A stretch of 62,867 bases of DNA, filler included. It is 6 parts of 6 records of this genome, joined end to end, with 100 filler letters (N's around TTAATTAATTAA, not from the genome) between each part and the next. Parts side by side here need not be neighbours in the genome. Positions count along the whole stretch, not along the records: positions 38,301 to 51,537 come from SRR22947727_4727; 5 more parts are not named here. One strand, written 5' to 3'. Each line of letters begins with the position of its first letter. The stretch's first letter is position 1. The translations under genes and the position numbers were made by a program. This document shows, in pieces, positions 28,298-61,620 of this stretch. Below the pieces are notes generated by a model that saw nothing but the letters and a program-made list of their open reading frames with translations, was not told the origin of the DNA and did not search any database.

Positions 28298-28345
28298 CTA
28301 TTTTAAACTCCTTTTTTAAAAAGAATTCTTCTCTAATATCTGCTG

Positions 28346-29547: not shown

Positions 29548-29548
29548 T

Positions 29549-31424: not shown

Positions 31425-31426
31425 TA

Positions 31427-32125: not shown

Positions 32126-32135
32126 GTTTTTTTAT

Positions 32136-32546: not shown

Positions 32547-32554
32547 AAATACTC

Positions 32555-33085: not shown

Positions 33086-33093
33086 ATTAATAA

Positions 33094-35264: not shown

Positions 35265-35369
35265 AATTGACTCCCTAAAAGTTTGCATATAATAACAGTG
35301 ATGGCTTTATATGCAAAATCTATATATAACTTTAATGTTAAGATTATTTAATCTCACCTTTTCGAAAAA

Positions 35370-36218
35370 TTATAGCTTTGGAAATAGTATTGGTGTTGAT
35401 TTCTGATAGTGCTTATATTCATCCAAATGCCCCCATTTTTTATGCCCTCTTGATTCAAGCATTCTTACCCCGCTCACATGTACTAAAAGTATATAGGTGA
35501 AGATTGGCGAGATAAGCGTAATGTATTGAAGTCCTTGCAAAGAAGAGAGTGACATCAATGCCACAGCCAGCCATAAGACTATTTCGCCAAAGTAATTTGG
35601 ATGTCTTGATTTGGCCCATAAACCAGTAGTAATAAATTTATCTCTATTTTCAGGAATTGCTCTAAACATTGATTTTTGCTTATCAGCAATAACTTCGGTA
35701 CAAAATCCATATATGAATAAACCAAGTCCAATATAAAATAGTATGTTTACGGATACGCCGGTATCTGATGAAATTGCTGTTAAGGCGCACATTGAGCATA
35801 GAGAAACCCATAGCCCCTGAAGGGTCCATGTCATGAAGAACTGTGTTGCAGATGGCTTTATACTTCTAAATCTTTTATCCTCCCCATCCTTATGTACTCT
35901 CATAAACAAAAAGCTGCCTAGTCTTAAAGCCCATAAGCTTATAAGAAATACTAAAGTAATATTTGCACCGTTTAGGTTTGAAAAATTATTAGATGAGTAA
36001 TACAAGGAGAACCACATTACTGTTAAGTAAGTAACGCTCCCCATTAAGTCATAAAACTTTTCTGTTTGAAGTGCATAGGCAGGAATAAATGCTACCCATT
36101 GCATACAGAATGCAATTATTACTGCTTTAACAACCAAATCTAATCCAGTTCCATTTGCTATGAGCAATGCAACTATAAAAACAGCCATTGAAATTAATAT
36201 ATTTATAAATTTACTCAT
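35370..36218 (-). CDS. DUF1295 / steroid 5-alpha-reductase-like membrane protein
   Basis: EKFYDL.GS, DKRF, ADKQK, GLWAKSRHPNYFGE; start at MSKF overlaps upstream stop (ATGA). Confidence 0.85.
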   Translation of the reverse strand: MSKFINILISMAVFIVALLIANGTGLDLVVKAVIIAFCMQWVAFIPAYALQTEKFYDLMGSVTYLTVMWFSLYYSSNNFSNLNGANITLVFLISLWALRLGSFLFMRVHKDGEDKRFRSIKPSATQFFMTWTLQGLWVSLCSMCALTAISSDTGVSVNILFYIGLGLFIYGFCTEVIADKQKSMFRAIPENRDKFITTGLWAKSRHPNYFGEIVLWLAVALMSLSSLQGLQYITLISPIFTYILLVHVSGVRMLESRGHKKWGHLDEYKHYQKSTPILFPKL

Positions 36219-38035: not shown

Positions 38036-38068
38036 TCTAATGACCTCTTCAATTAAAATAACACAACT

Positions 38069-38200
38069 ATGAAAATTTCTACAAGCCAATTCAAAAATGG
38101 AACAAAGCTTTTATTAGATGGAGCGCCCTGCTCAATTGTTAGTCATGAGTTCCATAAGCCTGGAAAAGGGCAAGCTGTTATGAGGGTTAAATATAAAAAC
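38069..38200 (+). CDS. efp: Elongation factor P, 5' fragment
   Basis: [11 protein letters not shown]...[16 protein letters not shown] with PGKG loop. Confidence 0.92.
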
Positions 38201-38300
38201 NNNNNNNNNNNNNNNNNNNNNNNNNNNNNNNNNNNNNNNNNNNNTTAATTAATTAANNNNNNNNNNNNNNNNNNNNNNNNNNNNNNNNNNNNNNNNNNNN
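38201..38300. other. Artificial contig-joining linker
   Basis: N44-TTAATTAATTAA-N44. Confidence 0.99.
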
Positions 38301-38331
38301 ATATTATGATTGATAGGTTTAAGATATAATT

Positions 38332-39210
38332 ATGGATCACTTTGGACAGCTACTTACAGCTGCAATCACACCTTTTGATGACAATGGTGTTATGGAAACA
38401 GATACCTTCTGGAGACTTTGTAAAAAACTTGTTGCAGATGGATCAGATGGAATAGTCCTAACTGGCACAACTGCTGAATCGCCAAATTTATCAGAGTCTG
38501 ATCGAATTAACATATACTCAACTGCAAAAGATGCGGTAGGCGAGGTTGCCAATCTCGTTGCTGGAACAGGTACTTACTCCACTAAAGAAACAATTCATCT
38601 TACAAAATTAGCTGAAGAAGTAGGGATGGACGGCATAATGATCGTTACTCCCTACTACAACAAACCATCTCAACTTGGGATTTTAAAACACTTTGAAGCT
38701 GTTAAAAGCAATACATCATTACCAATAATGGCATACAACATACCCGGAAGAACGGGAAGTCTTATTGAGTTAGATACAATTGAAAAACTTATTACTGATA
38801 TCGGAATACATTCAATAAAAGATGCAGTCGGAGATTTTGAATTTTCAAAAGAAGAGTTAACTAGATTCAAAGATGAAGTCTATATCTACTCTGGTGATGA
38901 CGCCTTAACAAAAGATTTCATGAATCATGGTGCAGTTGGGGTTGTGTCTGTTGCCTCCCATTTAATTGGTCGTCAGATTAAGTCCATGTTAGAGCTGATA
39001 AAAGAAAATAAATCAACAGAAGCAGATGTTCTACATGAATCGTTACTTCCACTTATTTCAGCTATATTTGAAGAACCTAGTCCTGGACCAGTTAAGCACC
39101 TCCTTTCAGAATCTTGGGAGAACGTAGGAAAACCTCTGCTTCCTATGACTGAGGTATCAGAAGAATTAGCTGAAAAACTCAATAAAATATACGCCAAATT
39201 AAATAACTAA
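38332..39210 (+). CDS. dapA: 4-hydroxy-tetrahydrodipicolinate synthase
   Basis: GTTAES, TPYYNKP, YNIPGRT, IKDA, YSGDD. Confidence 0.93.
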   Translation: MDHFGQLLTAAITPFDDNGVMETDTFWRLCKKLVADGSDGIVLTGTTAESPNLSESDRINIYSTAKDAVGEVANLVAGTGTYSTKETIHLTKLAEEVGMDGIMIVTPYYNKPSQLGILKHFEAVKSNTSLPIMAYNIPGRTGSLIELDTIEKLITDIGIHSIKDAVGDFEFSKEELTRFKDEVYIYSGDDALTKDFMNHGAVGVVSVASHLIGRQIKSMLELIKENKSTEADVLHESLLPLISAIFEEPSPGPVKHLLSESWENVGKPLLPMTEVSEELAEKLNKIYAKLNN

Positions 39211-39246
39211 AACCTTTACCGCTAACAAAATATGGTATAATGTAAT

Positions 39247-41640
39247 GTGGCTGTGAAGACATCCACTCGCAAAAGGGTAAATGGGCGTAAGCGGGTGTCA
39301 AAACAAAACAATTTAATAAAAGTTAACAAGGGCTTTAAAACACTTAACTCTTCTATTTCTAGTGTTCTAAAAAAGTTCTTTAATTCCTATCAATCTGTTG
39401 CAGCCTTTATGTTCATAATTGCTCTATTTACTGCATTATCAAGTGTTCAAAAAGCTGGTCCAATAGGTGAACTATTTTATGGTCTTCTAACATGGTGTTT
39501 CGGTTATGGAGCATTAGCTCTTCCAGTCCTAATGTTTTATGGTGCGGCTATTCTTGTCAGAGATAAGGACACAATTAAATCTCAAAAGGTTTTAGTTGGA
39601 ACTTTTTGGGTACAAATATTTTCATCAGCACTTTTTCACTTCTACATACATCCACAACCATTACCAATTAGCGTAGGTGGGGACATCCTTCAACGAGCAG
39701 GAGGTTTTGTTTCTGCATTTATTGTATTTCCACTAAATAATTTAATCGATGTTGAAATGACTCATGCTGTTCTCTTAATTGGACTTATTATTTCAGTACT
39801 CTACATGACTGATATTGAATTAAAAGATTTAATTGGTGGGGTTCAAGCTATCTTCGCATACATCTTCAAATTTATAGTCGCTTTTTTCAAGGCACGTAGA
39901 GAAGCATCTAAAGTTAACTTTGATCAGATGCTAGCTATTACTGATGAAGATACTGAAACTGCTTCAATCAAAGATAATGTTTTAAAACTAAAACCTAAGA
40001 AAAAAGAAAAAGCTATCAAGAAAAAACCTGAAATTGTTGCAGAAGAAAAACCAGTTAAGGCAAATACTGTCAGAAGAAAAAATTCTGCTTACAAGCTTCC
40101 ACCTGTTTCATTACTTGAAAAAGGTTCTTCTGTCTCCGCATCTAAAAAACTCTTACAACAAACTGCTACCGATTTAACTAATTTACTTAAAGAACATGGT
40201 GTTGAGGCTGAGTTAACAAACATTGTTCCTGGCCCTACTGTTACACGATATGAAATTGAATTAGCCCCAGGCGTTAAGGTCTCTAAAGTTACTTCACTTT
40301 CTCATGATATTGCATATGCTTTAGCTACTCCAGATGTACGTTTATTAGCCCCGATACCTGGAAGAAGTGCTATCGGTATTGAGATTCCTAACAGGCAACG
40401 AAAACTTGTCTCACTTGGCGATGTCTTGCAATCAACAGAAGCAAAAAACAATCCACATCCATTATCAGTCGGTCTTGGACTAGATATTTCAGGAAAAGCT
40501 AGATTAATAAATTTATCCGAACTTCCACATGTTCTTATTGCTGGACAAACTGGTGCAGGTAAATCTTCTTGTATTAATTCAATCGTTACATCTCTTTTAG
40601 TTAGAGCTAATCCTGATGAAGTAAAGATGGTCATGGTTGATCCAAAAAGAGTTGAACTTGGTCAGTACAACAATGTTCCGCACCTTTTAACGAAAGTTAT
40701 TACGAATCCTAAAAAAGCAGTTGATGCATTGAGTTGGGCTGTTTCAGAAATGGATAGAAGATACGATCTTTTAGCAGATAGCTCAGTCAGAGATATTAAT
40801 GGGTATCACGAAAAATATGATGCAGGTTTATTAGATGAAGAAAAATTTGACCGATTCCCATATATTGTTGTTTTCATCGATGAGTTAAATGACTTGATGA
40901 TGGTAGCTGGTCGTGAAGTTGAATCAGCAATTGTTAGATTAGCACAAATGGCTAGGGCTATTGGAATCCACCTTGTTGTTGCTACTCAGAGACCATCAGT
41001 CGATGTAATTACAGGTGTCATGAAAGCTAACATACCATCCCGACTTGCATTTTCTGTTGCGTCAACAACTGATTCCCGAGTAATCCTTGATCAATCTGGA
41101 GCTGAAAAACTAATTGGTCTTGGTGACATGCTAGTAGTAACAGCATCCAATCCCAGACTTGAACGTATACAAGGAGCTTGGGTTACCGAAAAAGAAATTC
41201 AAGATGTTGTTTCATGGGCAAAAGACCAAAAAGATGCTGAATACGATCCAGCAGTAACTGAAGAGAATAAAACAACAACCACTATTGGCGGCGATGACTT
41301 CGGTGAAGATGAAGACCTTATTCAAGCAGCTAAAGATCTTGTTATTCGCTCTCAAATGGGTTCAACTTCTATGCTTCAACGAAAATTACGAGTTGGTTTC
41401 GCTAGAGCTGGTAGGTTAATGGATATTTTAGAATCACAGGCAATCGTTGGTCCATCAGAAGGTTCTAAAGCACGAACAGTATTAATTACGGTCGAAGAGT
41501 ATGAGAGTGCCAGCTTACCTTCCATTGCAGAAGATAATGATGCCACACCACAAGAAGAGTTTGAACCAGTAGCTGAAACTGAAGATAGTGTTTCTGAAGA
41601 ATCAACAACTGATGAAGAAGACAATAGCTGGTACGAATAA
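39247..41640 (+). CDS. ftsK: DNA translocase FtsK
   Basis: N-terminal TMs, AGQTGAGKS, DPKRVEL, ATQRPSVDV, gamma domain STSMLQRKLRVGFARAGR. Confidence 0.96.
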   Translation: MAVKTSTRKRVNGRKRVSKQNNLIKVNKGFKTLNSSISSVLKKFFNSYQSVAAFMFIIALFTALSSVQKAGPIGELFYGLLTWCFGYGALALPVLMFYGAAILVRDKDTIKSQKVLVGTFWVQIFSSALFHFYIHPQPLPISVGGDILQRAGGFVSAFIVFPLNNLIDVEMTHAVLLIGLIISVLYMTDIELKDLIGGVQAIFAYIFKFIVAFFKARREASKVNFDQMLAITDEDTETASIKDNVLKLKPKKKEKAIKKKPEIVAEEKPVKANTVRRKNSAYKLPPVSLLEKGSSVSASKKLLQQTATDLTNLLKEHGVEAELTNIVPGPTVTRYEIELAPGVKVSKVTSLSHDIAYALATPDVRLLAPIPGRSAIGIEIPNRQRKLVSLGDVLQSTEAKNNPHPLSVGLGLDISGKARLINLSELPHVLIAGQTGAGKSSCINSIVTSLLVRANPDEVKMVMVDPKRVELGQYNNVPHLLTKVITNPKKAVDALSWAVSEMDRRYDLLADSSVRDINGYHEKYDAGLLDEEKFDRFPYIVVFIDELNDLMMVAGREVESAIVRLAQMARAIGIHLVVATQRPSVDVITGVMKANIPSRLAFSVASTTDSRVILDQSGAEKLIGLGDMLVVTASNPRLERIQGAWVTEKEIQDVVSWAKDQKDAEYDPAVTEENKTTTTIGGDDFGEDEDLIQAAKDLVIRSQMGSTSMLQRKLRVGFARAGRLMDILESQAIVGPSEGSKARTVLITVEEYESASLPSIAEDNDATPQEEFEPVAETEDSVSEESTTDEEDNSWYE

Positions 41641-41654
41641 CTAAAGCTAAATCT

Positions 41655-42464
41655 CTACTGATCTATTTTTATTGATCTTCCTTTAATAATTCTTCTTCTT
41701 ATTGCAGCAGAAATAGTATCAACAGTTAACACTAAAACTACTGTTGCAACTAATACGGTGCCAGCTCTTGGAAAGTCTCTAAATCTTAATTGATTTATAA
41801 GTTCTGCACCTACGCCACCTGCTCCAACAACGCCTAATACAGCTGATGCACGTAAGTTTATTTCAAATCTGTATAGCCAGTAAGAAGTAATAGTTGGCAT
41901 AACCTGTGGAACAACTCCAAATAAAAGTTCATTTATCTTGGATCCACCAGATGATTTGATTGCCTCAAGTGGTCCTTCATCTATACCTTCAATAACTTCA
42001 GAAGATAGCTTACCTAATGTACCGATTGAGTGAATACCTATTGCAAGCGTTCCAGTGAGTGCACCTAAACCAGTAATTGGAAGAAATACGAATGCGAGGA
42101 TAAGTTCTGGAAATGCTCTTATTCCATTTAGTATTTGTTTTGTTGCTTCAGATACATAGTTAACTGCAACATTATTTGCTGCTAAGAACGCTATCGGAAA
42201 ACTAAAAATTGCTCCTATAACTGTTCCTGCCCAAGCTATGAAGAGAGACTCTGCAACCTTTGGGAGTATTCTTTCAATAGCTTCTTGGCTTAAGTCTAAA
42301 GGAAACATAGCGCCAACTAATATTGCTATCTGTTCAGGTGCTTTAAGAATTTTCTCGAGAGTTATCTCTAAACCTGAAGCTGACCAAATAGAACCTGCAA
42401 CGATAAGACTTGTAATGGCATATTTAAGAACTTTTTGCTGTACGGGTTGTTTAGGGAGATTCAT
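41655..42464 (-). CDS. phnE: Phosphonate/phosphate ABC permease PhnE (second copy)
   Basis: IRAFPELI, LGKLSSEVIE, YRFEINLRASAVLGVVGAGG. Confidence 0.92.
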   Translation of the reverse strand: MNLPKQPVQQKVLKYAITSLIVAGSIWSASGLEITLEKILKAPEQIAILVGAMFPLDLSQEAIERILPKVAESLFIAWAGTVIGAIFSFPIAFLAANNVAVNYVSEATKQILNGIRAFPELILAFVFLPITGLGALTGTLAIGIHSIGTLGKLSSEVIEGIDEGPLEAIKSSGGSKINELLFGVVPQVMPTITSYWLYRFEINLRASAVLGVVGAGGVGAELINQLRFRDFPRAGTVLVATVVLVLTVDTISAAIRRRIIKGRSIKIDQ

Positions 42465-43243
42465 AGAATTCGCCTCCTCAACCAGACACTAAATTGCTCT
42501 ATCAAAATAACTACTACTAGTATCAAAACAATAATTGGTGAAATTCTATCAAATCTTAAAAATATTCTCTGTGTTTCAATTATCCTACCAACACCACCTG
42601 CACCAACAAGACCTAGAATTACACTTGCTCTTATGCATAGTTCAAAGATGTAGAGAAAATAAGCTGTAAAGTTCGGTAAGACTTGAGGTAGTGCGGATGT
42701 GAACACCGATTGATTGTGAGATGCACCCGAAGATTTTGCAGCTTCTAATGGACCCGGATCAATACTGTCAATTGTCTCTGAAAGAAGTTTACCCATAATG
42801 GCTAATGAGAACATTACCAGTGCTAATACTCCAGCAAAAGGGCCAAGGCCTACAGCAACAGTAAACATCATAGCCCAAAACAAATCGGGAATTGTTCGTA
42901 CTAGGTTCAGGAAAGACTTGTACAAGAAAAATGAAATCTTGTTTTGGTTTGTAGTTTGTGAAGCATAGAAAGAAAGAGGGAGCGCAATAAAACAGCCAAC
43001 AATACTGGCAAGGATAGCAATCTGTATAGTTTCAATTATTGCTTCAGAAGCATTTTCAATTGCCCAACTCCATTTTGGATTAAAAAGGGGATCTGTAACT
43101 ATGTATCTATTTTGTAGATTTTCTCTAAAGTCTGATAAGTTAAATCCAACTTTTGAAAAACAATAGTAAGAAAATAAAAATGCTGCTGGAATGCCTAAGA
43201 ATACCATTAAAGATGGTGGTGGTTTTTTAGGTAGGTTAATCAT
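42461..43243 (-). CDS. phnE: Phosphonate/phosphate ABC permease PhnE (first copy)
   Basis: VRTIPDL, GKLLSETID, FELCIRASVILGLVGAGG. Confidence 0.92.
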   Translation of the reverse strand: MINLPKKPPPSLMVFLGIPAAFLFSYYCFSKVGFNLSDFRENLQNRYIVTDPLFNPKWSWAIENASEAIIETIQIAILASIVGCFIALPLSFYASQTTNQNKISFFLYKSFLNLVRTIPDLFWAMMFTVAVGLGPFAGVLALVMFSLAIMGKLLSETIDSIDPGPLEAAKSSGASHNQSVFTSALPQVLPNFTAYFLYIFELCIRASVILGLVGAGGVGRIIETQRIFLRFDRISPIIVLILVVVILIEQFSVWLRRRIL

Positions 43244-44006
43244 CTTCTCCTATTAAATCTGATGACTTTATAGACCTACCATAAATATTCTCAAAATCTG
43301 CATCGGAAACGTCATCTACACTTCCGTCATAAACTAGATTTCCCTCCCTAAGTCCAATCAACCTTGTGCCAAATTCTTTAGCGAGGTCGAGAAAGTGAAG
43401 GTTTACTATTGTAGTTATACCAAGATCCTGATTAATTTTTTTTAGGTAGCTCATTACAACCCTTGAAGTTACTGGGTCGAGAGATGCTACAGGTTCGTCA
43501 GCAAGCATAACTTTTGGTTTTTGAGCAAGTGCTCTAGCAATTCCAACACGTTGTTGCTGTCCACCTGAGAGATTTGATCCGCGTACATATGCTTTCTCCA
43601 ATATCTCAACTCTTTCAAGAGCATCAAAAGCAATTTGTTTGTCTTCTTTTGGCCAGAGACCAGTGATAGATCGTATTGTTGAAACCTGGCTTAATCTGCC
43701 TGTAAGAACATTTTTAAGAACACTGGAACGATTTACTAAATTGAATGTTTGAAAAATCATACCAATATCAGAACGTATTTTTTTCAATTCTTTTTTTGAA
43801 GCATTTGTTACTTGATTTCCATCTACAACTACATTCCCGCTAGTTGGTTTTACAAGATTATTAATTGATCGAAGTAATGTTGATTTACCTGCTCCTGATA
43901 AACCAACGATAATAACAAAGTCACCTTCATTTATCTCTAAATTTATATTTTCTAGTGCTTTTACACCGCCGGGGTAGACAACACCTACATTTTCAAATTT
44001 TATCAT
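43236..44006 (-). CDS. phnC: ABC ATPase PhnC
   Basis: GLSGAGKST, LSGGQQQRV, ADEPVASLDP, NLH. Confidence 0.93.
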   Translation of the reverse strand: MIKFENVGVVYPGGVKALENINLEINEGDFVIIVGLSGAGKSTLLRSINNLVKPTSGNVVVDGNQVTNASKKELKKIRSDIGMIFQTFNLVNRSSVLKNVLTGRLSQVSTIRSITGLWPKEDKQIAFDALERVEILEKAYVRGSNLSGGQQQRVGIARALAQKPKVMLADEPVASLDPVTSRVVMSYLKKINQDLGITTIVNLHFLDLAKEFGTRLIGLREGNLVYDGSVDDVSDADFENIYGRSIKSSDLIGEDD

Positions 44007-44015
44007 TTTTTCCCA

Positions 44016-44050
44016 TAAAAAATAAGGGGCAGTTTCGAACCACCCCTTAT
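44016..44050 (-). terminator. Hairpin/terminator between phnD and phnC
   Basis: Minus strand ATAAGGGGTGGT-TCGAA-ACTGCCCCTTAT followed by TTTTT. Confidence 0.7.
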
Positions 44051-44059
44051 CTCTATATT

Positions 44060-45178
44060 TTAATTATCGTATAGACCAAATTCGTCCGCTGCCTGTTTTA
44101 CAACATCGAACTCTGAGTTCACTGCTGGAACAATATCTGTCCAACCGTAAATCTCGTCCATTACCGCGTATCCTTCATCTGTTGATATGTAGTCTTTTAA
44201 TATTGTATATATTTTAGCTTTCATATCTTCAGGTAAGTCAGATCTTACTGCGACAACGTCATTAGGAATTTCTGCAGTTATTCCAATTGCAATGACCTTT
44301 TCACCAACGTCTAATGCAGTTTTTCTTAGAGTTCTTCTTGCATCATCGTAAGTTACACCAAATTTGTGGTCGCCATTGTAAAGAGCTGTAATAACTCCAT
44401 CATGAGATCCTGCAAACACTTGTGTAATGTCCTTGGTGTAGTCAATGCCCATGTTCTTTAATTGCAGTGAAGGGTATAAGTAACCAGATGTTGATCCTTC
44501 TTCGACAAAGACCACTGTGTTACCAACCATTGAATTTAAATCTGCTTCACAAGCATATCCAGGGCTAACTGTTCCATTATCTCGTACCTCTGGTTCAAGA
44601 CCATTATCTCCAAAGCTCCAACCAACTTGTAGCGCTGCTACAGGTGGTGGTGAAGTTTCTGAACCAGGTATTAACGTTTGAACACCATTTACAGTTTCAA
44701 ATGCTCCAATAACTGGTGGAGAAGTACAAACACTTACGTCAGTTGTCCAAAATGTACCATGATAAGATCCTGATCCATAACGCACAACTTTAGCAACCGC
44801 TTCAATTCTGGTAGGAAATACATTCAGTGCGTTAACGTACCCTAAGGTGTTAAAGGCACCGATATCAGCTTGACCTGATCCCATTGCAACTAATAAACCA
44901 GAGAAATCACTGGTTACAAATCCTTCAACTTCAATACCTAAGCCATCAGATAGAACTTTCATCAATGGTTTTATATTGTCTTGAAGATCTGTTTGTTCTG
45001 CACTGGGAATAAATCCGAATGTTATCTTATCAAGAACTGGAGCAACGGTTGTTGCCGGTGATTCAAGTGATTCTGATTCTTCCACAGATGCAGTTTCTTC
45101 TACTGTCTCTTCTGCTGAGCCGCCACATGCGACTAACAACATAGAAAGACAAAGTAGAATAAGAAATGTTTTTTTCAC
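44060..45178 (-). CDS. phnD: PhnD family substrate-binding lipoprotein
   Basis: Lipobox LVAC, GFIPS, STSGYLYP, AGSHD, IPND. Confidence 0.9.
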   Translation of the reverse strand: MKKTFLILLCLSMLLVACGGSAEETVEETASVEESESLESPATTVAPVLDKITFGFIPSAEQTDLQDNIKPLMKVLSDGLGIEVEGFVTSDFSGLLVAMGSGQADIGAFNTLGYVNALNVFPTRIEAVAKVVRYGSGSYHGTFWTTDVSVCTSPPVIGAFETVNGVQTLIPGSETSPPPVAALQVGWSFGDNGLEPEVRDNGTVSPGYACEADLNSMVGNTVVFVEEGSTSGYLYPSLQLKNMGIDYTKDITQVFAGSHDGVITALYNGDHKFGVTYDDARRTLRKTALDVGEKVIAIGITAEIPNDVVAVRSDLPEDMKAKIYTILKDYISTDEGYAVMDEIYGWTDIVPAVNSEFDVVKQAADEFGLYDN

Positions 45179-45246
45179 ATTACCTCCGCTTAACTTACTC
45201 TCATACTAACGAATCTGATAGAAGAGTATTTAAAATTAAGGTAAAT

Positions 45247-45708
45247 TTAATTCGTAGGTATGTATCCAAATTCTCTACTGAGAATATTTCCATTCGTGTC
45301 AAAAATAATTGATATTGGTTGACCTACTACTTGTAGTTCATCTCTTAATTCACTAGTTGAAAAACCAATTGTTAATTTTCCTTTTAAATTGTTTTGTACC
45401 CACTCCATAGTCGGATCAACTTCACTGTGTGCAAGCGCAATAATGTCATAAGTTTCTGAAAGTTTTTCTAAATTCTTTTCTAAGAGAGGCAACTCCTCTC
45501 GACAGATACCTCAGTAGTCAGCCCAGAAAACAATTAGTGTTTTCTTGTTTGTTAAATCTTCAATAACAAAATCACCTAACTCGTTAGTGTATGTCAATGT
45601 AGTTGGTGAGGTATTGACTGTATCAATAGGTATATCTGCTGCAGAATTATCTACAGAAACTGAAGAGCTACAAAAGCTAAAAAACAGAATAAATATTAGT
45701 TTTTTCAT
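45247..45708 (-). CDS. TlpA/ResA-like thioredoxin-fold selenoprotein (in-frame UGA at 45511-45513 read as Sec), 153 aa
   Basis: ORFs 45511-45708 and 45247-45492 are in the same frame; the join reads FWADY-UGA-GICREELP (UxxC); cis-Pro motif VVGQP..IFD.NG. Confidence 0.8.
45484..45500 (-). promoter_or_regulatory. Putative bacterial SECIS hairpin
   Basis: GAGAGG-AGUUG-CCUCUC begins 10 nt after the UGA; G at the second loop position. Confidence 0.7.
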
Positions 45709-45755
45709 AAGTTTATTTTACTTATATACGGATTAAACATTGTTATCCTAACCAT

Positions 45756-46961
45756 ATGAAAATCGGACTGTTATCTGTAGGCACTGAAATTCTGTTAGGT
45801 GATACCATAAACACAAACCTCTCAAAACTTGGGAGCGAACTATATAATTCTGGAAATACACTGACACATGAAGTAACAGTCTCTGATATTGAAGATGAAA
45901 TAATAGCAGGATTTAATTTTCTATATACTTCTTGTGATGTTGTGATTACTTGTGGGGGATTGGGGCCAACTGAAGATGATATTACTCGAGAAGTAATATC
46001 TAAACACCTAAACATAGAATTAGAGCTTGACGAATCTCATGTAGAATTCATGAAAAAAAGATGGCAAGCTAGAGGGCTTATGATGCCAGAAACCAATATG
46101 AAGCAAGCTTATCTTCCTAAAAATTCCATAAAACTAAACAACACACAGGGAACAGCCCCCGGAACTTTAATAGAGTCCGACAATAAAAAAATATTTATAC
46201 TACCCGGGCCACCAAGGGAATTTATTCCAATGGTTCAAGATGAGATAGTCCCACTATTAATAGAGACATCAAATGAGAAACCAAAAAACTATCAGTTTGT
46301 ATTGTTTTACAATCAGGCAGAATCTTCACTTGCTCAGTCAATAAATAAATTTAAACCTGAAGGTATAGACATCGCATATTTAGCAAGTAAAGGAATAATC
46401 AAATTACGTTATGATAAAAATACAATTTCAAATGATGATGAACAATTGTTTATAGACACACTTAGGGATGTGTTTTCAGACGATATCATTGCTTATGAAA
46501 ATATAGATATTTCTAAAATTCTTTTAGATTTACTTATAGAAAAAGAACTCACAATCTCTTTTGTTGAAAGTGTTACTGGTGGAGAGCTATCTTCTAGATT
46601 TACAAAAAATCCAGGTGCTAGCAAAATATTAAAGGGAAGTTCTATCACTTATACAAATGATGCAAAGAAGTTATTAATTGACGAAGAAGTCGATTATAAA
46701 AATTGGCCAGAATTAACTGAGGTCTTGTCTGAAAATGCGTTAAATCATTATTCTACAGACCTTAATCTAAGCATATTAGGTGAGGCAGGTCCAATAACAT
46801 CAAGTAAGTATGGAATTGGTGATATTTTTATCACTATCTCAAATAAAGAAAAATCTGTATCTACTAAACATAAAATTAATGGTAATAGACAAGAAATAAT
46901 TGACAGATCAGTAAATAAAGCCTTTTGGGAGCTTATAAAATTTCTTAAAAACTTGTATTAG
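45756..46961 (+). CDS. cinA: CinA competence/damage-inducible protein (MoCF domain plus PncC-like domain)
   Basis: VGTEILLG...NTN, GGLGPTEDDITRE, GTAPG, LPGPPRE, ESVTGG; upstream of recA. Confidence 0.9.
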   Translation: MKIGLLSVGTEILLGDTINTNLSKLGSELYNSGNTLTHEVTVSDIEDEIIAGFNFLYTSCDVVITCGGLGPTEDDITREVISKHLNIELELDESHVEFMKKRWQARGLMMPETNMKQAYLPKNSIKLNNTQGTAPGTLIESDNKKIFILPGPPREFIPMVQDEIVPLLIETSNEKPKNYQFVLFYNQAESSLAQSINKFKPEGIDIAYLASKGIIKLRYDKNTISNDDEQLFIDTLRDVFSDDIIAYENIDISKILLDLLIEKELTISFVESVTGGELSSRFTKNPGASKILKGSSITYTNDAKKLLIDEEVDYKNWPELTEVLSENALNHYSTDLNLSILGEAGPITSSKYGIGDIFITISNKEKSVSTKHKINGNRQEIIDRSVNKAFWELIKFLKNLY

Positions 46962-46974
46962 AACAAATGTTCTA
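46959..46974. promoter_or_regulatory. LexA (SOS) box upstream of recA
   Basis: Palindrome TAGAAC-AAAT-GTTCTA matches Gram-positive/actinobacterial GAAC-N4-GTTC; lexA on the same contig. Confidence 0.85.
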
Positions 46975-47035
46975 GTAAAATTTGTCTTACATAGATGTTT
47001 TAATTAATAATAATTAATCTAATTAGGAGATAAAA

Positions 47036-48121
47036 ATGGATAAAGACAGGGCAAAAAAACTAGATACAGTATTCGATCAAATTGAGAAACAATTTGGTGA
47101 GGGTTCACTTATGAAACTCGGTGCTGATAATATTAAAAAAATCCCAGCAATATCAACCGGAGCACTATCTATCGATTTAGCTCTAGGTATAGGTGGAATA
47201 CCAAAAGGAAGAGTAGTTGAAATTTATGGGCCAGAAAGTTCTGGTAAGACAACACTTTCTTTACATGTAGCAGCAGAAGCTCAAAAAGCAGGTGGCGTAG
47301 CAGCATTTATAGATGCAGAGCATGCCCTAGATCCTGTTTATGCAGCAGCTCTTGGTGTTGATATCGATGAATTATTAGTCTCACAACCTGACACAGGTGA
47401 ACAAGCTTTAGAGATTGCAGATATGCTTATTGAGTCTGGTGGTGTTGACGTTGTTGTTATTGATTCAGTTGCTGCGCTTGTCCCTAAAGCAGAGATTGAT
47501 GGTGAAATGGGTCAATCTCATGTTGGACTTCAAGCACGATTGATGTCACAAGCATTACGTAAACTAACTGGTTCAATCCATAAAACACAAACTACTGTAA
47601 TTTTTATTAATCAAATTCGTGAAAAAATTGGCGTTATGTGGGGATCTCCAGAAACTACTAGTGGAGGTAGAGCACTTAAATTTTATGCATCAGTTCGTAT
47701 CGATATAAGAAGAATAGAGACACTCAAAGTTGGTGCTGAGATGATAGGTAATAGAGTAAGGGCAAAAATTGTAAAGAATAAAGTTGCTCCTCCGTTTAAA
47801 GAAGCACAATTTGATATTATGTTTGGAAAAGGAATATCTAGAGAAGGTAGCTTGCTAGACGTTGGTGTAGAACATGGCATCGTTCGTAAAGGTGGTGCAT
47901 GGTTTACATATGATGAAGTACAACTTGGTCAGGGTAAAGAGAACTCTAAAAACTATTTAAGAGAAAATCCAGATCTAGCACTTCAGCTTGAAAATGATGT
48001 GTATAAAGCGGTAGGTTTGATTGAATCAGACACGGAAGATGTAACAACTGATGATGTTGAAACAGATGACATTTCAGTTGATGAAACAAAAGAATCAAAA
48101 ACCACTAATAAAGAAAAATAA
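47036..48121 (+). CDS. recA: Recombinase RecA
   Basis: [30 protein letters not shown]. Confidence 0.99.
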
Positions 48122-48158
48122 TATATATATTTTCTAAAAATATCCATATAATTTAATT

Positions 48159-49535
48159 GTGAAAGCAGCAATTGAATTAAACAAAACTCCAAGGGCCAAA
48201 CCGTCAAGGAGCGGATTAAATTATTTTGTTAAAACCTTTGGTTGTCAGATGAATGAACATGATTCTGAACGTATCGCTGGACTATTTGAATACGATGGCA
48301 TGTTAAAGGCTAATTCTTTAGAACAAGCTGATGTATTATTTATCAACACATGCACAATTCGTGAAAATGCAGATGACAAGTTATATGGAACACTCGGACA
48401 ACTTAAAAAATGGAAAAGCGAAAAAAGTAATCGTAAATTATTGGTAGGTGGCTGTGCTGCTCAAAAAGATAAAGAATTAGTCAGAGAGCGTGCTCCATGG
48501 GTAGATGTTGTTATTGGAACTCATAATCTCACTAATATTGTAAACCTATTAAATCAAAGCGAAGATTGGGGGCCGATTACTGAAGTTATTGATGAGATAG
48601 AATCCCTACCCACAGATGCACCTTCAATACGTGAGTCAGAAGTATCTGCTTGGCTAACGATTCAAATTGGATGTAATAACAGTTGTACCTTCTGTATTGT
48701 CCCATCTGTACGAGGTCCAGAAATTAGTAGGCGTCCTTCTGACATAGTTAATGAGGCTACAGCAATGATAGATAGTGGAGTTAAAGAGATTACCTTACTG
48801 GGACAGAATGTTAACTCATACGGAAGAGATTTGAAAATTAATGGTTCTTCTAAACCATATTTTACCGAACTATTAACGGAATTAAATAACGTAGAAGGAT
48901 TAAAACGTATAAGATTTACATCACCTCACCCAAAAGACTTTAAACCTGAAACCCTTATTGCAGTAAATGATCTAGATAAAGTAGCGAACCAGATCCATAT
49001 GCCATTACAAAGTGGTAGTAATAAAATATTAAGAAAAATGCAACGTGGATACACTCAAGAAAAGTTTCTTGAAAAACTTAACCTAGCAAAAGAAACAATA
49101 GAAGATGTTTCACTAACAACTGATATTATTGTGGGCTTTCCAGGTGAAACAGATGAAGATTTTGAAGAGACATTAAAAGTTATTAAAGAATCACAATTTG
49201 ACGCTGTATATATGTTTAAATTTTCACCTCGCCCAGGAACAACAGCAAACACAATGGATGATGATTTTATTGAAAAAGGGGTTATTGACTCAAGGTTTAT
49301 GAAACTTAAAGAAATACAAACTGAAATCAGTCACGTTCGTTACAAAAGATTTATTGGAACAGACCAAAAATTACTTGTAGAAAAATACTCTAAGAAAACG
49401 AATACATTTATGAGTGGAAAAATAGATGGAGGACAGACAGTACACATACCTTCTCAGGACGTATCAATAGGTGATTTTCTTGATGTAAGGATTATTGAAG
49501 CTACTCCCTTTGCTTTAACCGCGGAAATTATCTAA
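48159..49535 (+). CDS. miaB: tRNA methylthiotransferase MiaB
   Basis: TFGCQMNEHDSE, CNNSCTFC radical SAM motif, TRAM tail. Confidence 0.95.
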   Translation: MKAAIELNKTPRAKPSRSGLNYFVKTFGCQMNEHDSERIAGLFEYDGMLKANSLEQADVLFINTCTIRENADDKLYGTLGQLKKWKSEKSNRKLLVGGCAAQKDKELVRERAPWVDVVIGTHNLTNIVNLLNQSEDWGPITEVIDEIESLPTDAPSIRESEVSAWLTIQIGCNNSCTFCIVPSVRGPEISRRPSDIVNEATAMIDSGVKEITLLGQNVNSYGRDLKINGSSKPYFTELLTELNNVEGLKRIRFTSPHPKDFKPETLIAVNDLDKVANQIHMPLQSGSNKILRKMQRGYTQEKFLEKLNLAKETIEDVSLTTDIIVGFPGETDEDFEETLKVIKESQFDAVYMFKFSPRPGTTANTMDDDFIEKGVIDSRFMKLKEIQTEISHVRYKRFIGTDQKLLVEKYSKKTNTFMSGKIDGGQTVHIPSQDVSIGDFLDVRIIEATPFALTAEII

Positions 49536-50360
49536 TTGCTCTATTTTTTAACTGGCACAACTGCATCTGGAAAGACAAATGTTGCACATGAAATTGCAAT
49601 TGAGCGAAATATTCCACTGCTTTCCCTTGATTCCATGGCAGTGTATAGAGGTTTAGATATATTAAGCGCCAAACCAACTGATGTAATGCAGGCTCAGGTT
49701 GAATATCTTGGTATTGATATAGCAGAACCTGACCAAAACTTTTCAGTAGTAGATTTCCTTAACTATTTATTAGATATTGATTTTCCAAAAATGACCTACG
49801 AGAGAGATATTTTAGCAGTTGGGGGAACTGGATTATATTTTTCATCAATGGTAAAAAACTTTGAATTTCGTCCTACTGATCCATCTATTCGAGCTGAACT
49901 AGAGCAACTTAATTATGGACAACTTCTTAAATTTCATGACGTTTATAAAATTGAGCTCCCAAATGTTGAGCTAAATAAAAGAAGATTAATTCGAAATATT
50001 GAATCTAGTCTTCTTGAAGATTCAAAATATATATTCCCACCATTAAATATAAGTAAAAATAAAGTTGGTATTTTTTGGAACAACCCTGATTACAAAGCAA
50101 ATATTGAACAACGAACAAAGTTGATGATAGAAAATGGATTAGCTAATGAACTATCATCACTTTTAAATCCATCTAAAACCATACTTCAAGCTATAGGCAT
50201 GAATGTAAATACAGACATAGAATCTAACATAAATCAGAAAACCTTTAAATTAGTAAAAAAACAAATTACTTGGTTTAAAAAAGAAACATCTCTTGAACAA
50301 CATTCAACAAACGACCCTAATTTTATAAAAAATAAAATGATAGAGTTAATGGATGAGTAA
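49536..50360 (+). CDS. miaA: tRNA dimethylallyltransferase MiaA (compact/divergent)
   Basis: GTTASGKT, DSMAVYRGLDILSAKP, VGGTGLY, KKQITWF. Confidence 0.9.
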   Translation: MLYFLTGTTASGKTNVAHEIAIERNIPLLSLDSMAVYRGLDILSAKPTDVMQAQVEYLGIDIAEPDQNFSVVDFLNYLLDIDFPKMTYERDILAVGGTGLYFSSMVKNFEFRPTDPSIRAELEQLNYGQLLKFHDVYKIELPNVELNKRRLIRNIESSLLEDSKYIFPPLNISKNKVGIFWNNPDYKANIEQRTKLMIENGLANELSSLLNPSKTILQAIGMNVNTDIESNINQKTFKLVKKQITWFKKETSLEQHSTNDPNFIKNKMIELMDE

Positions 50361-51087
50361 TTTCGCTTATATGTCTGGTACAGGAAATGATTTTATTGTT
50401 TCTCCTTACACTGGCCCTACTTCGGAGATTCAAATTATTTCTCTTGTTGCGGATTCTGATTATGAAGTAGATGGGGTCATTTTTGTCGAATCTATAGATG
50501 ATTCAACTGTAAAAATGCATTATTTTAATAGTGACGGAACTGCTGCTGAGTTATGTGTCAACGGTGTCAGGTGTACTGCTAAGTACGCTTATGATAATGA
50601 ACTCGTAACCGCACATAAAATGACTGTCGTAGCTCCTGTCGGTAATCTTACTGCAGTTGTTGAAGATTCAGTAGTCACAGTGAATGCACCATTGCCAACT
50701 TACTCAAGTGAATCAATACTAATTGATGATATCGATGGTATTAAGTCACAAGTTGGTAACCCACATTTTTTAGTTAGTGTAGAAAATGTAGAGACTTTCG
50801 ATTTGGCAACTTTTTACAATAAAGTTAATGAATCTGAACATTTCTCCGAGGGGGTCAATGTTGAAATTTATGAAGTTGTTAGTGAAAATTTTGTTAAAAC
50901 AAGAGTATTCGAAAGAGGAGTAGGGGAGACTGATGCCTGTGGTTCCGGCGCATTGTGTTTATTTAACTATCTTTACTCTGAAAAAATTGTACACAACCCA
51001 ACAACAATTCTTTTTCCTGGTGGAGAGTTAGATTTAGAATTTAAAGATACGAACCTGTATATAAGCGGAATCGTTACATATCTCTAA
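50353..51087 (+). CDS. dapF: Diaminopimelate epimerase
   Basis: GTGNDF, NSDG..AELCVNG, GNPH, ERGVGETDACGSG. Confidence 0.92.
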   Translation: MSNFAYMSGTGNDFIVSPYTGPTSEIQIISLVADSDYEVDGVIFVESIDDSTVKMHYFNSDGTAAELCVNGVRCTAKYAYDNELVTAHKMTVVAPVGNLTAVVEDSVVTVNAPLPTYSSESILIDDIDGIKSQVGNPHFLVSVENVETFDLATFYNKVNESEHFSEGVNVEIYEVVSENFVKTRVFERGVGETDACGSGALCLFNYLYSEKIVHNPTTILFPGGELDLEFKDTNLYISGIVTYL

Positions 51088-51537
51088 ATAGAGACACAAC
51101 CTTACCAACTATTGAGATGTTTTCATTTACTTCAATATTTTCGTAGTTTTTATTGGCCGGGATTAGATACTTCTTATTACTTATTGTGTCTATATATTTT
51201 ACTGTAGCCTCAGTTCCTAGTACAAGGAATGCTCCTATATCTCCATTCGTTGGTTGTTTTGACTTATCTACAACTACTAGATCTCCATCATGTATTCCAG
51301 CATCAATCATGGAATCTCCATTTATTTTTAATGCAATAAGCGAGTCATTAAAATTGGTTTCTGGATAAGGAAGCTCTCCAATTATATTTTCCTCTGCAGC
51401 AAGCGGTAACCCAGCTGCTATTTCTCCAACTATTGGGATAGATCTAAATTCATTTGTTACATCATTAAGATGTAGAGATCGTGATTTACCTTCAGATTTA
51501 TTAATAACGCCTCTTTTTTCTAACTTGTTTAAGTGGT
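51074..51537 (-). CDS. lexA: SOS repressor LexA, 5'-truncated at contig end
   Basis: Frame open to contig end: HLNKLEKRG...IPIVGEIAAGLPL (Ala-Gly cleavage site), GDSM (Ser), EATVK (Lys). Confidence 0.92.
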
Positions 51538-51637
51538 NNNNNNNNNNNNNNNNNNNNNNNNNNNNNNNNNNNNNNNNNNNNTTAATTAATTAANNNNNNN
51601 NNNNNNNNNNNNNNNNNNNNNNNNNNNNNNNNNNNNN
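51538..51637. other. Artificial contig-joining linker
   Basis: N44-TTAATTAATTAA-N44. Confidence 0.99.
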
Positions 51638-51644
51638 GATGCAA

Positions 51645-51797
51645 TTAAAATTTAAGCCCTCGCTTTTTAGCTATCTGCTTTATTTTGGTTATCATCTCAC
51701 TATCTTCTTCTTCGCTCTCTAAGATGATTTCAGAGTGGTTGAATGTGTCTACATACTTCCGCAAGTAATCTAGTAGTATTTGAATATCGTCTTTCAT
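51645..51797 (-). CDS. Small hypothetical protein (50 aa)
   Basis: Manual translation MKDDIQILLDYLRKYVDTFNHSEIILESEEEDSEMITKIKQIAKKRGLKF*. Confidence 0.55.
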   Translation of the reverse strand: MKDDIQILLDYLRKYVDTFNHSEIILESEEEDSEMITKIKQIAKKRGLKF

Positions 51798-51871
51798 TAT
51801 CCTAGTCTTTTAAGTTAGTGTAGTTATTTAATCAATGTCGGCATTTTTTAAACCCACCTTGCCATATACTC

Positions 51872-52044
51872 AACGTTAGTGGTCATTTAGATAAATCCAC
51901 CAACCTCTGTACTTCGTTTAAAAACTCCTTCATAAAAGGTGCGTTCATTCCTTCAATATTCCATCCACCACCAATTTTTGCAAAATGATAGTTCAGTCGC
52001 TGCCTTACAATTTCTGATTGCTGAGATAAACGACCACTAACATT
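51872..52044. repeat. 18-bp imperfect inverted repeat with GTT/AAC cores (attC-like cassette ends)
   Basis: AACGTTAGTGGTCATTTA (51872-51889) vs TAAACGACCACTAACATT (52027-52044), 16/18 complementary. Confidence 0.6.
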
Positions 52045-52152
52045 AGATAAATCCAATGCTTGCTTTTGTTGTTCTTGCTCCTTCATTTTTCTAAGGTTTC
52101 TTATTAGTAATTTGCTATTTCCTTTTTTCATAGTCGCACTGTATTTATCCAT
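51883..52152 (-). CDS. Small hypothetical protein (true start may be downstream, MKKG or MKEQ)
   Basis: ORF track; co-oriented with neighbours. Confidence 0.55.
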   Translation of the reverse strand: MDKYSATMKKGNSKLLIRNLRKMKEQEQQKQALDLSNVSGRLSQQSEIVRQRLNYHFAKIGGGWNIEGMNAPFMKEFLNEVQRLVDLSK

Positions 52153-52268
52153 GTCCGCTCATTAGCACATGAAGTTAACAAAGCCCCAAATAAAATACAT
52201 TTAAATAATCTCATAACTCATTCTTTAATTTCAGTAATATACAAATACCCTATTGGGTATCCAACATA

Positions 52269-52433
52269 TTAATCAATAAATTCAATATCATTCCAGGTAT
52301 CATCTTTCTCACCATATAGGCGAGTAACAGCTTTCTTAGGCTTAGCACTAGAACAATTAACGCATGTTTTAGCACTAGGTAAAGCTTTAAGTCTAAGAGG
52401 ATTAATCACCTCCTTACATTTTACACATTTCAT
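52269..52433 (-). CDS. DksA/TraR C4-type zinc-finger protein (54 aa, not in ORF track)
   Basis: MKCVKCKEVINPLRLKALPSAKTCVNC matches CxxC-x3-I-x3-RL-x-A-x-P-x4-CxxC. Confidence 0.8.
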   Translation of the reverse strand: MKCVKCKEVINPLRLKALPSAKTCVNCSSAKPKKAVTRLYGEKDDTWNDIEFID

Positions 52434-52480
52434 AGGTTAATAATTAACATTATATCCTATACATATATCAAAATGGTTAA

Positions 52481-52912
52481 CTATTTGAGTTTCGTTTTTT
52501 TAAGCGCCTTCCATAGCTGCTTTGGCGTGTTAGCTACATATTCTTTCATATTCTCACCCTCACCAATTTGCAAAGTCAAATTACTCCTACCATTATTATC
52601 TTGATAAGTAATCAACCACCACAAAATTACCCCAGCTTTTACCTCACCATAGTATTTGTATATGAATGACTCAATAATTTGATGGAATGGATCCTCATAC
52701 AAAGTCAAATCAATTCCTACATTCAACATCTGGAGCGAGCGCTCATCCAATGAAATAATTACTTCAATTAAATCACAAAAAAACTGCTCCTCATTCTTCC
52801 TAACGGATTGTGCACTTTCATTAATTTGTACACCCTCACCCATAAAGTCAGTAATCGACTTTAATATCTTACCTTCTTTCTTCTTCAATTCCAAATAATT
52901 TAGTAAATTCAT
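52481..52912 (-). CDS. Hypothetical protein (start uncertain)
   Basis: 143-aa ORF co-oriented with the cluster. Confidence 0.6.
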   Translation of the reverse strand: MNLLNYLELKKKEGKILKSITDFMGEGVQINESAQSVRKNEEQFFCDLIEVIISLDERSLQMLNVGIDLTLYEDPFHQIIESFIYKYYGEVKAGVILWWLITYQDNNGRSNLTLQIGEGENMKEYVANTPKQLWKALKKTKLK

Positions 52913-53033
52913 CCATCTCCAAACACTTCAAAGACGAAAATGTCCCTAACGCACCCCATATATTACGTGCTTCACACCAACCAATCGGCTCCTTCATCTT
53001 ATCTCTTTTACTATAAAAATACCACTTCTTCAT
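52869..53033 (-). CDS. Small hypothetical protein (54 aa)
   Basis: Manual translation MKKWYFYSKRDKMKEPIGWCEARNIWGALGTFSSLKCLEMDEFTKLFGIEEERR*. Confidence 0.5.
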   Translation of the reverse strand: MKKWYFYSKRDKMKEPIGWCEARNIWGALGTFSSLKCLEMDEFTKLFGIEEERR

Positions 53034-53090
53034 AATTTTAGTTATTTATGTGTTTATTGAATCTACGAAAATTTTTTTGTCGCACCTATC

Positions 53091-53432
53091 CTACTTCCAG
53101 AGAACTTGTATTAATATAATGGTAATCGAAAGGGTTAGAGACACAAGGGTTTTCAAGCTTATGCCTTCCTTAAAGAATATCCCTACCAATATAGCATACA
53201 CGATTATACCTATTCCAAAGCCAATAAATCTAGTAGGCCAAAGCAATCCATCCAATCCTTCAACTGTGTATTTTGTTGCTACTATGTAGAAATAAGAAAT
53301 AGGTATTCCCATAAGTGAAATTACCCATGGATTTTCTTTAAAGTAATCCCATATGAATTGTCCTTGGATGTGAAACCAAGTAAGTATTTGGGCTAGTAAA
53401 AAGAATAATATGCCTATAATTAAGTTTTTCAT
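53091..53432 (-). CDS. Small 4-TM membrane protein (SMR/DMT-like)
   Basis: Four hydrophobic segments; FFKEGIS motif before the last helix. Confidence 0.6.
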   Translation of the reverse strand: MKNLIIGILFFLLAQILTWFHIQGQFIWDYFKENPWVISLMGIPISYFYIVATKYTVEGLDGLLWPTRFIGFGIGIIVYAILVGIFFKEGISLKTLVSLTLSITIILIQVLWK

Positions 53433-53472
53433 TAGGGTCTGGTATATACGTATAGTAGTATTAGGGGTGTGT

Positions 53473-61608: not shown

Positions 61609-61620
61609 AATCTATTATTT

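Follow-up and report, generated by a model that had tools for sequence, protein, structure and literature searches.

The stretch of DNA analysed here (hereafter the window; 62,867 nucleotides, nt) is made up of six contigs, the fifth of which, at positions 38301 to 51537, carries on its minus strand a complete candidate selenoprotein gene of the TlpA/ResA-like, thioredoxin-fold kind at 45247..45708. The frame runs from an ATG at 45708 to a TAA at 45249-45247, comprises 153 codons plus that stop, and contains a single in-frame TGA (45513-45511), which is codon 66 and is read here as a putative codon for selenocysteine (Sec, U). The read-through product has 153 amino acids (aa), the junction ...LIVFWADY-TGA-GICREELPLLEK with U at codon 66, and the candidate active site U66-G-I-C69. 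Under genetic code table 11 the same DNA is divided into an open reading frame (ORF) of 65 aa (45708..45511) and one of 81 aa with a TTG start (45492..45247). An earlier description made from the letters of the window (the initial annotation) had reported two ORF fragments in frame across a single TGA at 45511-45513, and its coordinates and letters are all correct. Three further features lie within the gene on the same strand: the codon (45502..45504) for Cys69, which closes the UxxC motif as its resolving residue and is Cys in 36/36 sequences; a hairpin resembling a selenocysteine insertion sequence (SECIS) across codons 70-75, R-E-E-L-P-L (45484..45500); and a probable lipoprotein signal peptide, MKKLIFILFFSF-C13 (45670..45708), proposed from the sequence and with C13 invariant in the family alignment. 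The assignment of the gene draws on the read-through translation, Pfam, AlphaFold2, Foldseek and orthologues at 35/35 related loci.

The related loci were obtained by a genome scan and come from single-amplified and metagenome-assembled genomes (MAGs) of many projects, assigned to Actinomarina, Actinomarinales or Acidimicrobiia, with protein identities of 48-97 %; together with the gene in the window they make up the 36 sequences referred to throughout. The contig at 38301-51537 is the only piece of the window that is collinear with Actinomarinales genomes, being collinear with all 35 loci, and it is 99.1 % identical in nucleotide sequence to one of them, L001 (JACNGE010000013.1), over 13,237 bases. 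Codon 66 is TGA at 35/35 loci, and in 36/36 sequences when the window is counted, and is TGG, TGT or TGC in none. The initial annotation had held that TGT or TGC at this site in relatives would speak for a sequencing error or a recent nonsense mutation; such codons were looked for, and it was homologs with the conserved TGA that were found. One of the loci, L006 (PAEE01000009.1), bears the title 'Methanobacteriota archaeon MED870' but is collinear with the Actinomarinales loci and has the same selenoprotein gene; probably either the MAG is mislabelled or the contig was mis-binned.

Protein databases present the gene differently. A protein search gave 377 hits at E ≤ 0.001 among 412 candidates, and the best 120 of these 377, all full-length (133-157 aa), have tryptophan at the residue of codon 66 in 119 cases and cysteine in one. 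Locus L008, whose DNA has TGA, translates into a protein almost the same as two of the database entries: codon 66 aside, P0090 (W) departs from it at only one residue and P0037 (C) at two; the tryptophan of the databases is therefore best explained, on these sequence comparisons, as a translation artefact that would have arisen where gene callers chose a table with TGA as Trp on short low-GC contigs. Split halves are also present in public sets, where proteins of 63-69 aa match residues 1-65 and proteins of 63-83 aa match residues from 68 or 73 onward, so that the splitting by standard gene callers that the initial annotation had predicted is indeed found. The full-length forms in these sets, with W in all but one, are P0002-P0121, and the pieces include P0126, P0131, P0132, P0137, P0142, P0162 and P0237. 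W forms and split forms alike are best read as an artefact of annotation that recurs systematically in a low-GC lineage.

The DNA on the far side of the UGA carries the marks of a translated sequence. Over codons 67-153 of the 36 sequences, the entropy at codon positions 1, 2 and 3 is 0.62, 0.24 and 1.11 bits, and the mean pairwise amino-acid identity is 70.5 % in this part, against 61.7 % in the folded part that precedes the UGA (residues 37-65) and 30.7 % in the linker (residues 14-36). Judged by these patterns, the sequence past the UGA evolves as coding sequence under purifying selection.

In the same genomes TGA serves as an ordinary stop. The phnE gene at 43243..42461 ends at a TGA that overlaps the start of the next gene as ATGA (phnE/phnE), and the earlier observation that TGA is a normal stop on the same contig, at phnE 42461, holds within 38301-51537, the piece for which statements on this contig are valid. 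Of 562 ORFs that do not overlap and reach 100 aa or more in the 35 loci and the contig, 399 end in TAA, 91 in TAG and 72 in TGA, and table 11 gives a coding fraction of 0.887. When frames interrupted by one TGA were sought, 58 candidates emerged, 36 of which are the redoxin gene itself, found in 36/36 sequences; the other 22, assessed by their coordinates and peptides alone, were taken for ordinary stops with a short open stretch alongside. In about 700 kb, no gene but the redoxin gene is repeatedly split by TGA.

Downstream of the UGA, 10 nt (45510-45501) are followed by the stem arm GAGAGG (45500-45495), the loop AGUUG (45494-45490) and the opposite arm CCUCUC (45489-45484), exactly the 6-bp hairpin that had been described at first. 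The loop begins 16 nt after the UGA and has G at its second position, and the whole hairpin is 17 nt long. In Escherichia coli, a 17-nt upper stem-loop 11 nt from the UGA suffices. In a single sequence a hairpin of this kind is not beyond chance, and in the related loci 637 of 27,751 TGA triplets (2.3 %) are followed by a hairpin that satisfies simplified rules for the bacterial SECIS (bSECIS), as are 12 of 537 on the contig. The comparative data raise it above chance, because the hairpin is conserved in 36/36 sequences, its pairs covary and synonymous sites within it are suppressed. The alignment of the 36 sequences is gapless, all six stem pairs are intact in every one of them, and no insertion or deletion separates the UGA from the hairpin. 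At pair 22-34, 25 sequences have G-C and the other 11 have C-G, a swap that also changes the protein (E71R and L75V); pairs 21-35 and 23-33 alternate between A-U and G-U; the first four loop letters, A-G-U-U, are invariant, and the fifth is G or A. The covariation score is 0.273, against 0.195 ± 0.021 for shuffled alignments, none of which (0/500) reaches the observed value, and controls slid along the alignment score at most 0.19 (24 distinct rows). An additional outer pair, 19-37, was rejected as unsupported, as it is paired in 10/24 distinct rows, and a lower helix predicted for the window by RNAfold is absent from the RNAalifold consensus.

Codon choice within the stem is fixed and confined to rare codons. 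Glutamate is encoded by GAG in 61/61 cases (background share 20.6 %), leucine by CTC in 25/25 (4.7 %), valine by GTC in 11/11 (8.4 %), arginine by CGG in 11/11 (2.1 %) and proline by CCT in 36/36 (38.7 %). The nearby invariant residues T57, A63, G67, A91, L92 and A93 use three or four codons each, and E77, which lies just beyond the stem, is GAA in 34/36. The entropy at third positions is 0.39 bits over codons 70-76 versus 1.18 bits over codons 77-153. These synonymous sites are stronger evidence than the covariation for selection on the hairpin at the RNA level.

The consensus given for bSECIS elements in passages of a review (PMC13188914) is a stem of 4-16 bp, a loop of 3-9 nt with G at loop position 1 or 2, a distance of 16-37 nt from the UGA and a minimum free energy (MFE) of -7.5 kcal/mol or lower. 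The hairpin agrees with this consensus in its 6-bp stem, 5-nt loop, G at loop position 2 and spacing of 16 nt, and is borderline in energy. In 36/36 sequences the MFE fold of 45 nt includes the hairpin, and with this context the energy of the six sequences reported does not exceed -7.7 kcal/mol. A permissive Rfam scan of 45380-45580 returned six noise hits (E 2-7), none of them to a SECIS model; a preprint on Actinomarina (10.64898/2026.04.03.716425) likewise describes the Rfam models as uninformative for this genus, as far as its available text goes.

The protein was assigned by profile, alignment and structure. Pfam AhpC-TSA, Redoxin, Thioredoxin_8 and Thioredoxin score just over their cut-offs, and four NCBIfam models score below theirs (StoA 33.5 against 210, ResA 33.1 against 170, DsbE 27.7 against 123 and TlpA 27.3 against 230), which by sequence makes the protein a member of the superfamily and not of any named equivalog. 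The peroxiredoxin model PF00578 scores 29.5 against a cut-off of 26, but the active site is not that of a peroxiredoxin, as it reads U-x-x-C with the putative Sec where peroxiredoxins have Thr or Ser; the peroxidatic motif, as given for Sec-containing peroxiredoxins in passages of PMC13188914, is P-x-x-x-T/S-x-x-C. Searched with a profile of the family, the solved structures yield seven TlpA-like matches with E values of 3e-7 to 9e-4. In the three alignments shown (2lja, 2yp6 and 3ia1) codon 66 coincides with the N-terminal, nucleophilic Cys of CxxC, where these proteins read WCGPC or WCTVC; this bears out the earlier claim that the UGA falls on the first Cys of the TlpA/ResA CxxC motif. The active site reads F-W-A-D-Y-U-G-I-C and is followed in the model by a helix (67-78), and corresponds to the W-C-x-x-C pattern with the candidate Sec for the first Cys.

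AlphaFold2 with a 69-row alignment gave a mean predicted local distance difference test score (pLDDT) of 85.3, with means of at least 91 for the ten-residue blocks over residues 41-150; an earlier run with 25 close homologs had a pLDDT of 61.2 and was not used. The top matches of this model among solved structures, as ranked by Foldseek, are 3gl3 (DsbE), 3kcm, 4nmu, 2f9s (ResA), 3ios (DsbF), 3erw (StoA), 4hqs (Etrx1), 1jfu (TlpA) and 2b1k (CcmG), with template modelling scores of 0.6-0.7 and a probability of 1.00, and Etrx2 is also among the matches. The predicted fold is the extracytoplasmic thioredoxin fold of the TlpA/ResA/DsbE type (cd02966-type), with its extra N-terminal strands, in keeping with the TlpA-like redoxin first proposed for this gene. 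It spans both sides of the UGA, the first piece contributing the beta strands of residues 37-62 and the second piece helices and strands. Across the 69 aligned sequences C69 is the sole invariant column, and F61, W62, A63, E72, P74 and P131 are nearly invariant. E72 stands three residues past the second Cys and P131 lies within a G-x-P loop; they would be the counterparts of ResA Glu80 and of the cis-proline, respectively.

The N-terminus of 36/36 sequences has basic residues and a hydrophobic stretch followed by Cys; the gene in the window has Phe at position -1, which is atypical of a lipobox. These sequence features suggest that the N-terminus is probably a lipoprotein signal and the protein probably lipid-anchored. 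Distant homologs with Cys in place of the putative Sec are P0124 (CPTC) and P0125 (CITC), both represented by protein sequences only. In the tree they stand beside the group-B Sec clade with 97/97 support and on long branches (stem 1.74), and P0125 is without the R-E-L-P stretch that encodes the hairpin. A change from Sec to Cys followed by relaxed constraint on the RNA is a tentative account of these two sequences. A search of the ESM Atlas with P0124 gave TlpA/AhpC-type clusters without taxa.

Machinery for Sec has been reported for the genus. According to the available text of the preprint, which is entitled "Actinomarina, resolved" (10.64898/2026.04.03.716425), selC, selA and selD are present in 84/84 complete Actinomarina genomes, and selB is present in all of them in a divergent form that falls below the KofamScan threshold. 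About five selenoproteins per genome are predicted there, and 83 of 550 candidates overlap no called gene; the main text, in the part available, has no redoxin, disulfide, TlpA, AhpC or thioredoxin. A lineage lacking selABCD, which the initial annotation had named as grounds for giving up its reading, is accordingly not what this preprint describes. In the present scans the sole selB match is a weak hit of YsxC, by its GTPase domain, at 35.9 bits against 242.

This analysis observed a conserved UGA with coding constraint downstream of it, a conserved hairpin that covaries, a predicted thioredoxin fold and an active site that aligns with those of TlpA-like proteins, and on these grounds the gene is very probably a genuine Sec-decoded UxxC redoxin. 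By analogy with E. coli fdhF, the 17-nt hairpin 10 nt past the UGA would be bound by SelB during translation, and SelB would bring Sec-tRNA(Sec) to the UGA, giving read-through in place of termination. The mature protein would lie at the outer face of the cytoplasmic membrane, probably lipid-anchored, and would act as an exported thiol-disulfide oxidoreductase of the TlpA/ResA type with selenocysteine as the attacking residue (U66-G-I-C69). To judge from its family, it may reduce disulfides or oxidised residues of extracytoplasmic proteins, and it would probably be recharged via a CcdA-type membrane electron carrier, like ResA, CcsX, TlpA and Etrx.

Several observations weigh against this interpretation. 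ARAGORN found no tRNA, and hence no tRNA-Sec, in the window, and only tRNA-Cys and tRNA-Gly (at 24/35), with no tRNA-Sec, in the 35 loci. NCBIfam scans of 66 ORFs of the window (at least 70 aa), the read-through protein and 10 flanking ORFs of L003, the one locus whose flanks were scanned for protein families, contained no selA, selB or selD, and the claim that the genus has the machinery rests on one unreviewed preprint. As to the hairpin, the RNAfold check that had been proposed for it shows the fold of the single 61-nt sequence to be no better than those of shuffled sequences (z = -0.68; equalled or bettered in 47 of 200 shuffles). The free energy of the bare hairpin, -6.2 to -7.9 kcal/mol, is about equal to the -7.5 kcal/mol of the consensus or short of it; its 16-nt spacing is at the lower limit of the consensus model; its loop is without the closing N1-N2 pair of the commonest pattern; and Rfam gave no match over the window at gathering thresholds, nor even at E ≤ 10 for a SECIS model. 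The compensatory pair divides two clades, so the swap from G-C to C-G is probably a single evolutionary event. Finally, the residue is read as Sec from sequence and not from selenium at the protein level, and only its likeness to the family points to a substrate and a redox partner.

Among the other explanations, the one that survives best is programmed read-through of the UGA without selenium, in which the hairpin would promote decoding of that codon by a near-cognate tRNA for Cys or Trp, with a CxxC or WxxC protein as the outcome. Sequence data, which reveal recoding and an RNA element, cannot alone tell which residue is inserted, and the DNA scanned (the window, the 35 loci for tRNA and the flanks of L003) holds no sel gene. 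Yet the site is the exact position of the redox-active Cys, where exchange of Sec and Cys is the rule in known selenoproteins, as described in passages of four sources (PMC13188914, PMC9312934, PMC1088965, PMC2398784), the geometry of the hairpin fits the SelB-dependent consensus (PMC13188914, in part), and the genus is reported, in the text available, to keep selA, selB, selC and selD (10.64898/2026.04.03.716425). Moreover, if Cys were wanted, TGT and TGC are one mutation away and are seen in 0/36. Read-through of this kind is considered improbable. Two separate products, a 65-aa lipopeptide ending at the TGA and an 81-aa protein starting from the TTG at 45492, would account for the two ORFs that table 11 yields and for the presence of both pieces in public protein sets, but neither half is a domain, the predicted fold needs both, the TTG lies inside the loop of the conserved hairpin, and the two frames are in register without insertion or deletion in 36/36 sequences, which leaves this explanation with very little probability.

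A sequencing error, a recent nonsense mutation or a pseudogene, with TGG or TGT/TGC as the true codon, might be suspected from the W in 119 of the best 120 of 377 homologs, TGG being one transition from TGA; it is nevertheless scarcely credible, with TGA at 35/35 independent genome loci and TGG at none, with P0090 and P0037 nearly identical to a locus whose DNA has TGA, and with the downstream frame under purifying selection. An altered code with TGA as a sense codon (Trp in table 4 or Gly in table 25) would give an intact protein, and public gene predictions took such a reading, but it can be dismissed with near certainty, as TGA stops 72 of the 562 ORFs, including ATGA overlaps, with the table 11 coding fraction noted above, the scan for TGA-joined frames recovers the redoxin in 36/36 and otherwise 22 apparent ordinary stops (on coordinates and peptides only), and Trp for the catalytic Cys would make a redoxin without a nucleophile.

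Decoding of the UGA as selenocysteine would place the protein among relatives of a known kind. Selenoproteins with a UxxC redoxin have been known from marine metagenomes since 2005-2008. Passages of the Sargasso Sea study of 2005 (PMC1088965) give 22 Prx-like (peroxiredoxin-like) sequences and four thiol-disulfide isomerase-like sequences, and passages of the Global Ocean Sampling study of 2008 (PMC2398784) give Trx-like (thioredoxin-like) 1 with 321 sequences, Prx-like 1 with 225 and Prx-like 3 with 68; UxxC redoxin selenoproteins also stand in the lists of reviews, in the parts available (PMC9312934, PMC13188914). The word Actinobacteria has no occurrence in the passages of PMC1088965, PMC2398784, PMC9312934 and PMC13188914 that were available. 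The marine UxxC 'Prx-like', 'Trx-like' and 'thiol-disulfide isomerase-like' proteins share with the present candidate the fold, a Sec that is first in UxxC, the surface ocean and the occurrence of Sec/Cys homolog pairs, and those families are defined by the same Pfam domains (AhpC-TSA, Redoxin and Thioredoxin_8); the likeness lies in these described features. The novelty suggested by the initial annotation is thus weaker than stated, as selenoproteins of the UxxC redoxin kind, like the Sec trait of Actinomarina, had already been published or posted as preprints, to the extent that these sources were available. In the literature searched, the gene of Actinomarinales was not found described as a TlpA/ResA-like lipoprotein, nor was its minimal covarying SECIS.

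Among characterised proteins, ResA and StoA of Bacillus subtilis, DsbF of Mycobacterium tuberculosis, Etrx1 and Etrx2 of Streptococcus pneumoniae, TlpA of Bradyrhizobium and CcmG of E. coli resemble the candidate in fold, in an active site at the start of helix 1 and, probably, in membrane anchoring at the N-terminus. It differs from ResA, StoA, DsbF, Etrx, TlpA and CcmG in having a putative Sec for the first Cys, in an identity to them of 15-23 % and in a gene that does not lie by ccdA, resB or resC. The WAxxUGC selenoproteins of NCBIfam NF041054 are alike in being TlpA/ResA-like with Sec right after W-A-x-x, but the motif there is U-G-C and here U-G-I-C, the score is 27.1 bits against 300, and the model has 354 positions against 153 aa, so that the protein is not a member. 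The hairpin is like the E. coli fdhF-type or consensus bSECIS in standing in the coding sequence 3' of the UGA, in the G-U of its apical loop and in a loop that starts at 16 nt (passages of PMC13188914), and is unlike them in having only 6 bp, no bulged U and a weaker energy; the SelB of Actinomarina is reported as divergent in the preprint text available (10.64898/2026.04.03.716425).

If the gene is decoded as proposed, automated annotation misses, as a false Trp or as two fragments, a selenoenzyme carried by 35/35 sampled Actinomarinales genomes. The gene would also lend gene-level support to the preprint's claim that a very abundant marine actinobacterium with a very small genome keeps the whole Sec pathway. 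One target of that pathway would be an envelope thiol-disulfide oxidoreductase, and in the sunlit ocean the upkeep of redox state outside the cytoplasm would thereby be tied to the supply of selenium. Knowledge of how Sec is decoded, and of which kinds of protein use it, is unchanged.

A broader proposal joins several of these elements. In it, a genome of about 1.1 Mb would have the redoxin as its chief, or even sole, extracytoplasmic thiol reductant, Sec would be fixed across Actinomarinales except for a single fast-evolving offshoot that exchanged it for Cys, and the SECIS would be a minimal 17-nt hairpin inside the C-x-x-C-x-x-E-x-P motif, with residues and RNA pairs changing together (E71R with L75V as G-C to C-G), read by a divergent SelB. 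As a whole this proposal is speculative and we hold it to be rather doubtful. Were it true, the hairpin would serve as a compact model, provided by nature, of how small a bacterial SECIS can be and still work, and one of the most abundant bacteria of the ocean would depend on selenium at one step in maintaining the redox state of its envelope.

The order of genes on the contig (38301..51537), with NCBIfam names, is dapA, ftsK, phnE, phnE, phnC, phnD, redoxin, cinA, recA, miaB, miaA, dapF and a cut lexA. The redoxin gene is flanked by cinA, which is divergent, and by phnD at 31/35 loci; at the other four (L008, L011, L014 and L035) the phn genes are absent and ftsK lies directly next to the redoxin gene, which is retained. 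A functional tie of the redoxin to the downstream phosphonate transporter was considered and rejected, as these 4/35 loci without phn genes keep the redoxin. No ccdA, resB or resC was found within the annotated flanks of the redoxin gene, and no terminator-like or convincing promoter-like site was found near it. The phnDCEE transporter cluster spans 41655-45178, and its PhnD scores 161.6 with the phosphonate/phosphite family, above the cut-off of 112, and 61 bits with the putative selenate-binding family TIGR04553, which is below its cut-off of 250. A pair of genes for tRNA-Cys(GCA) and tRNA-Gly(GCC) lies about 8.3-8.5 kb upstream of the redoxin gene, at a fixed distance, at 24/35 loci (within the range L001-L034), and the remaining loci have shorter flanks. 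The lexA gene (51074-51537) is cut at the contig end and comprises only the part from about residue 60 onward; the full gene is present in L001 and L003.

The six contigs of the window, delimited by runs of N, are 1-16076, 16177-22645, 22746-29384, 29485-38200, 38301-51537 and 51638-62867, and the linkers between them (16077-16176, 22646-22745, 29385-29484, 38201-38300 and 51538-51637) each consist of 44 N, 12 bases and 44 N. The contigs within 16177-38200 have no similarity to the 35 Actinomarinales loci and encode envelope proteins of the Gram-negative type, examples being a long YidC with a periplasmic domain (yidC, 19412-21163), an ECF sigma factor with a ChrR anti-sigma factor (24574-25794) and tonB/exbB/exbD/tolQ-like genes (31427-34476). 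These contigs may have been mis-binned from another low-GC organism.

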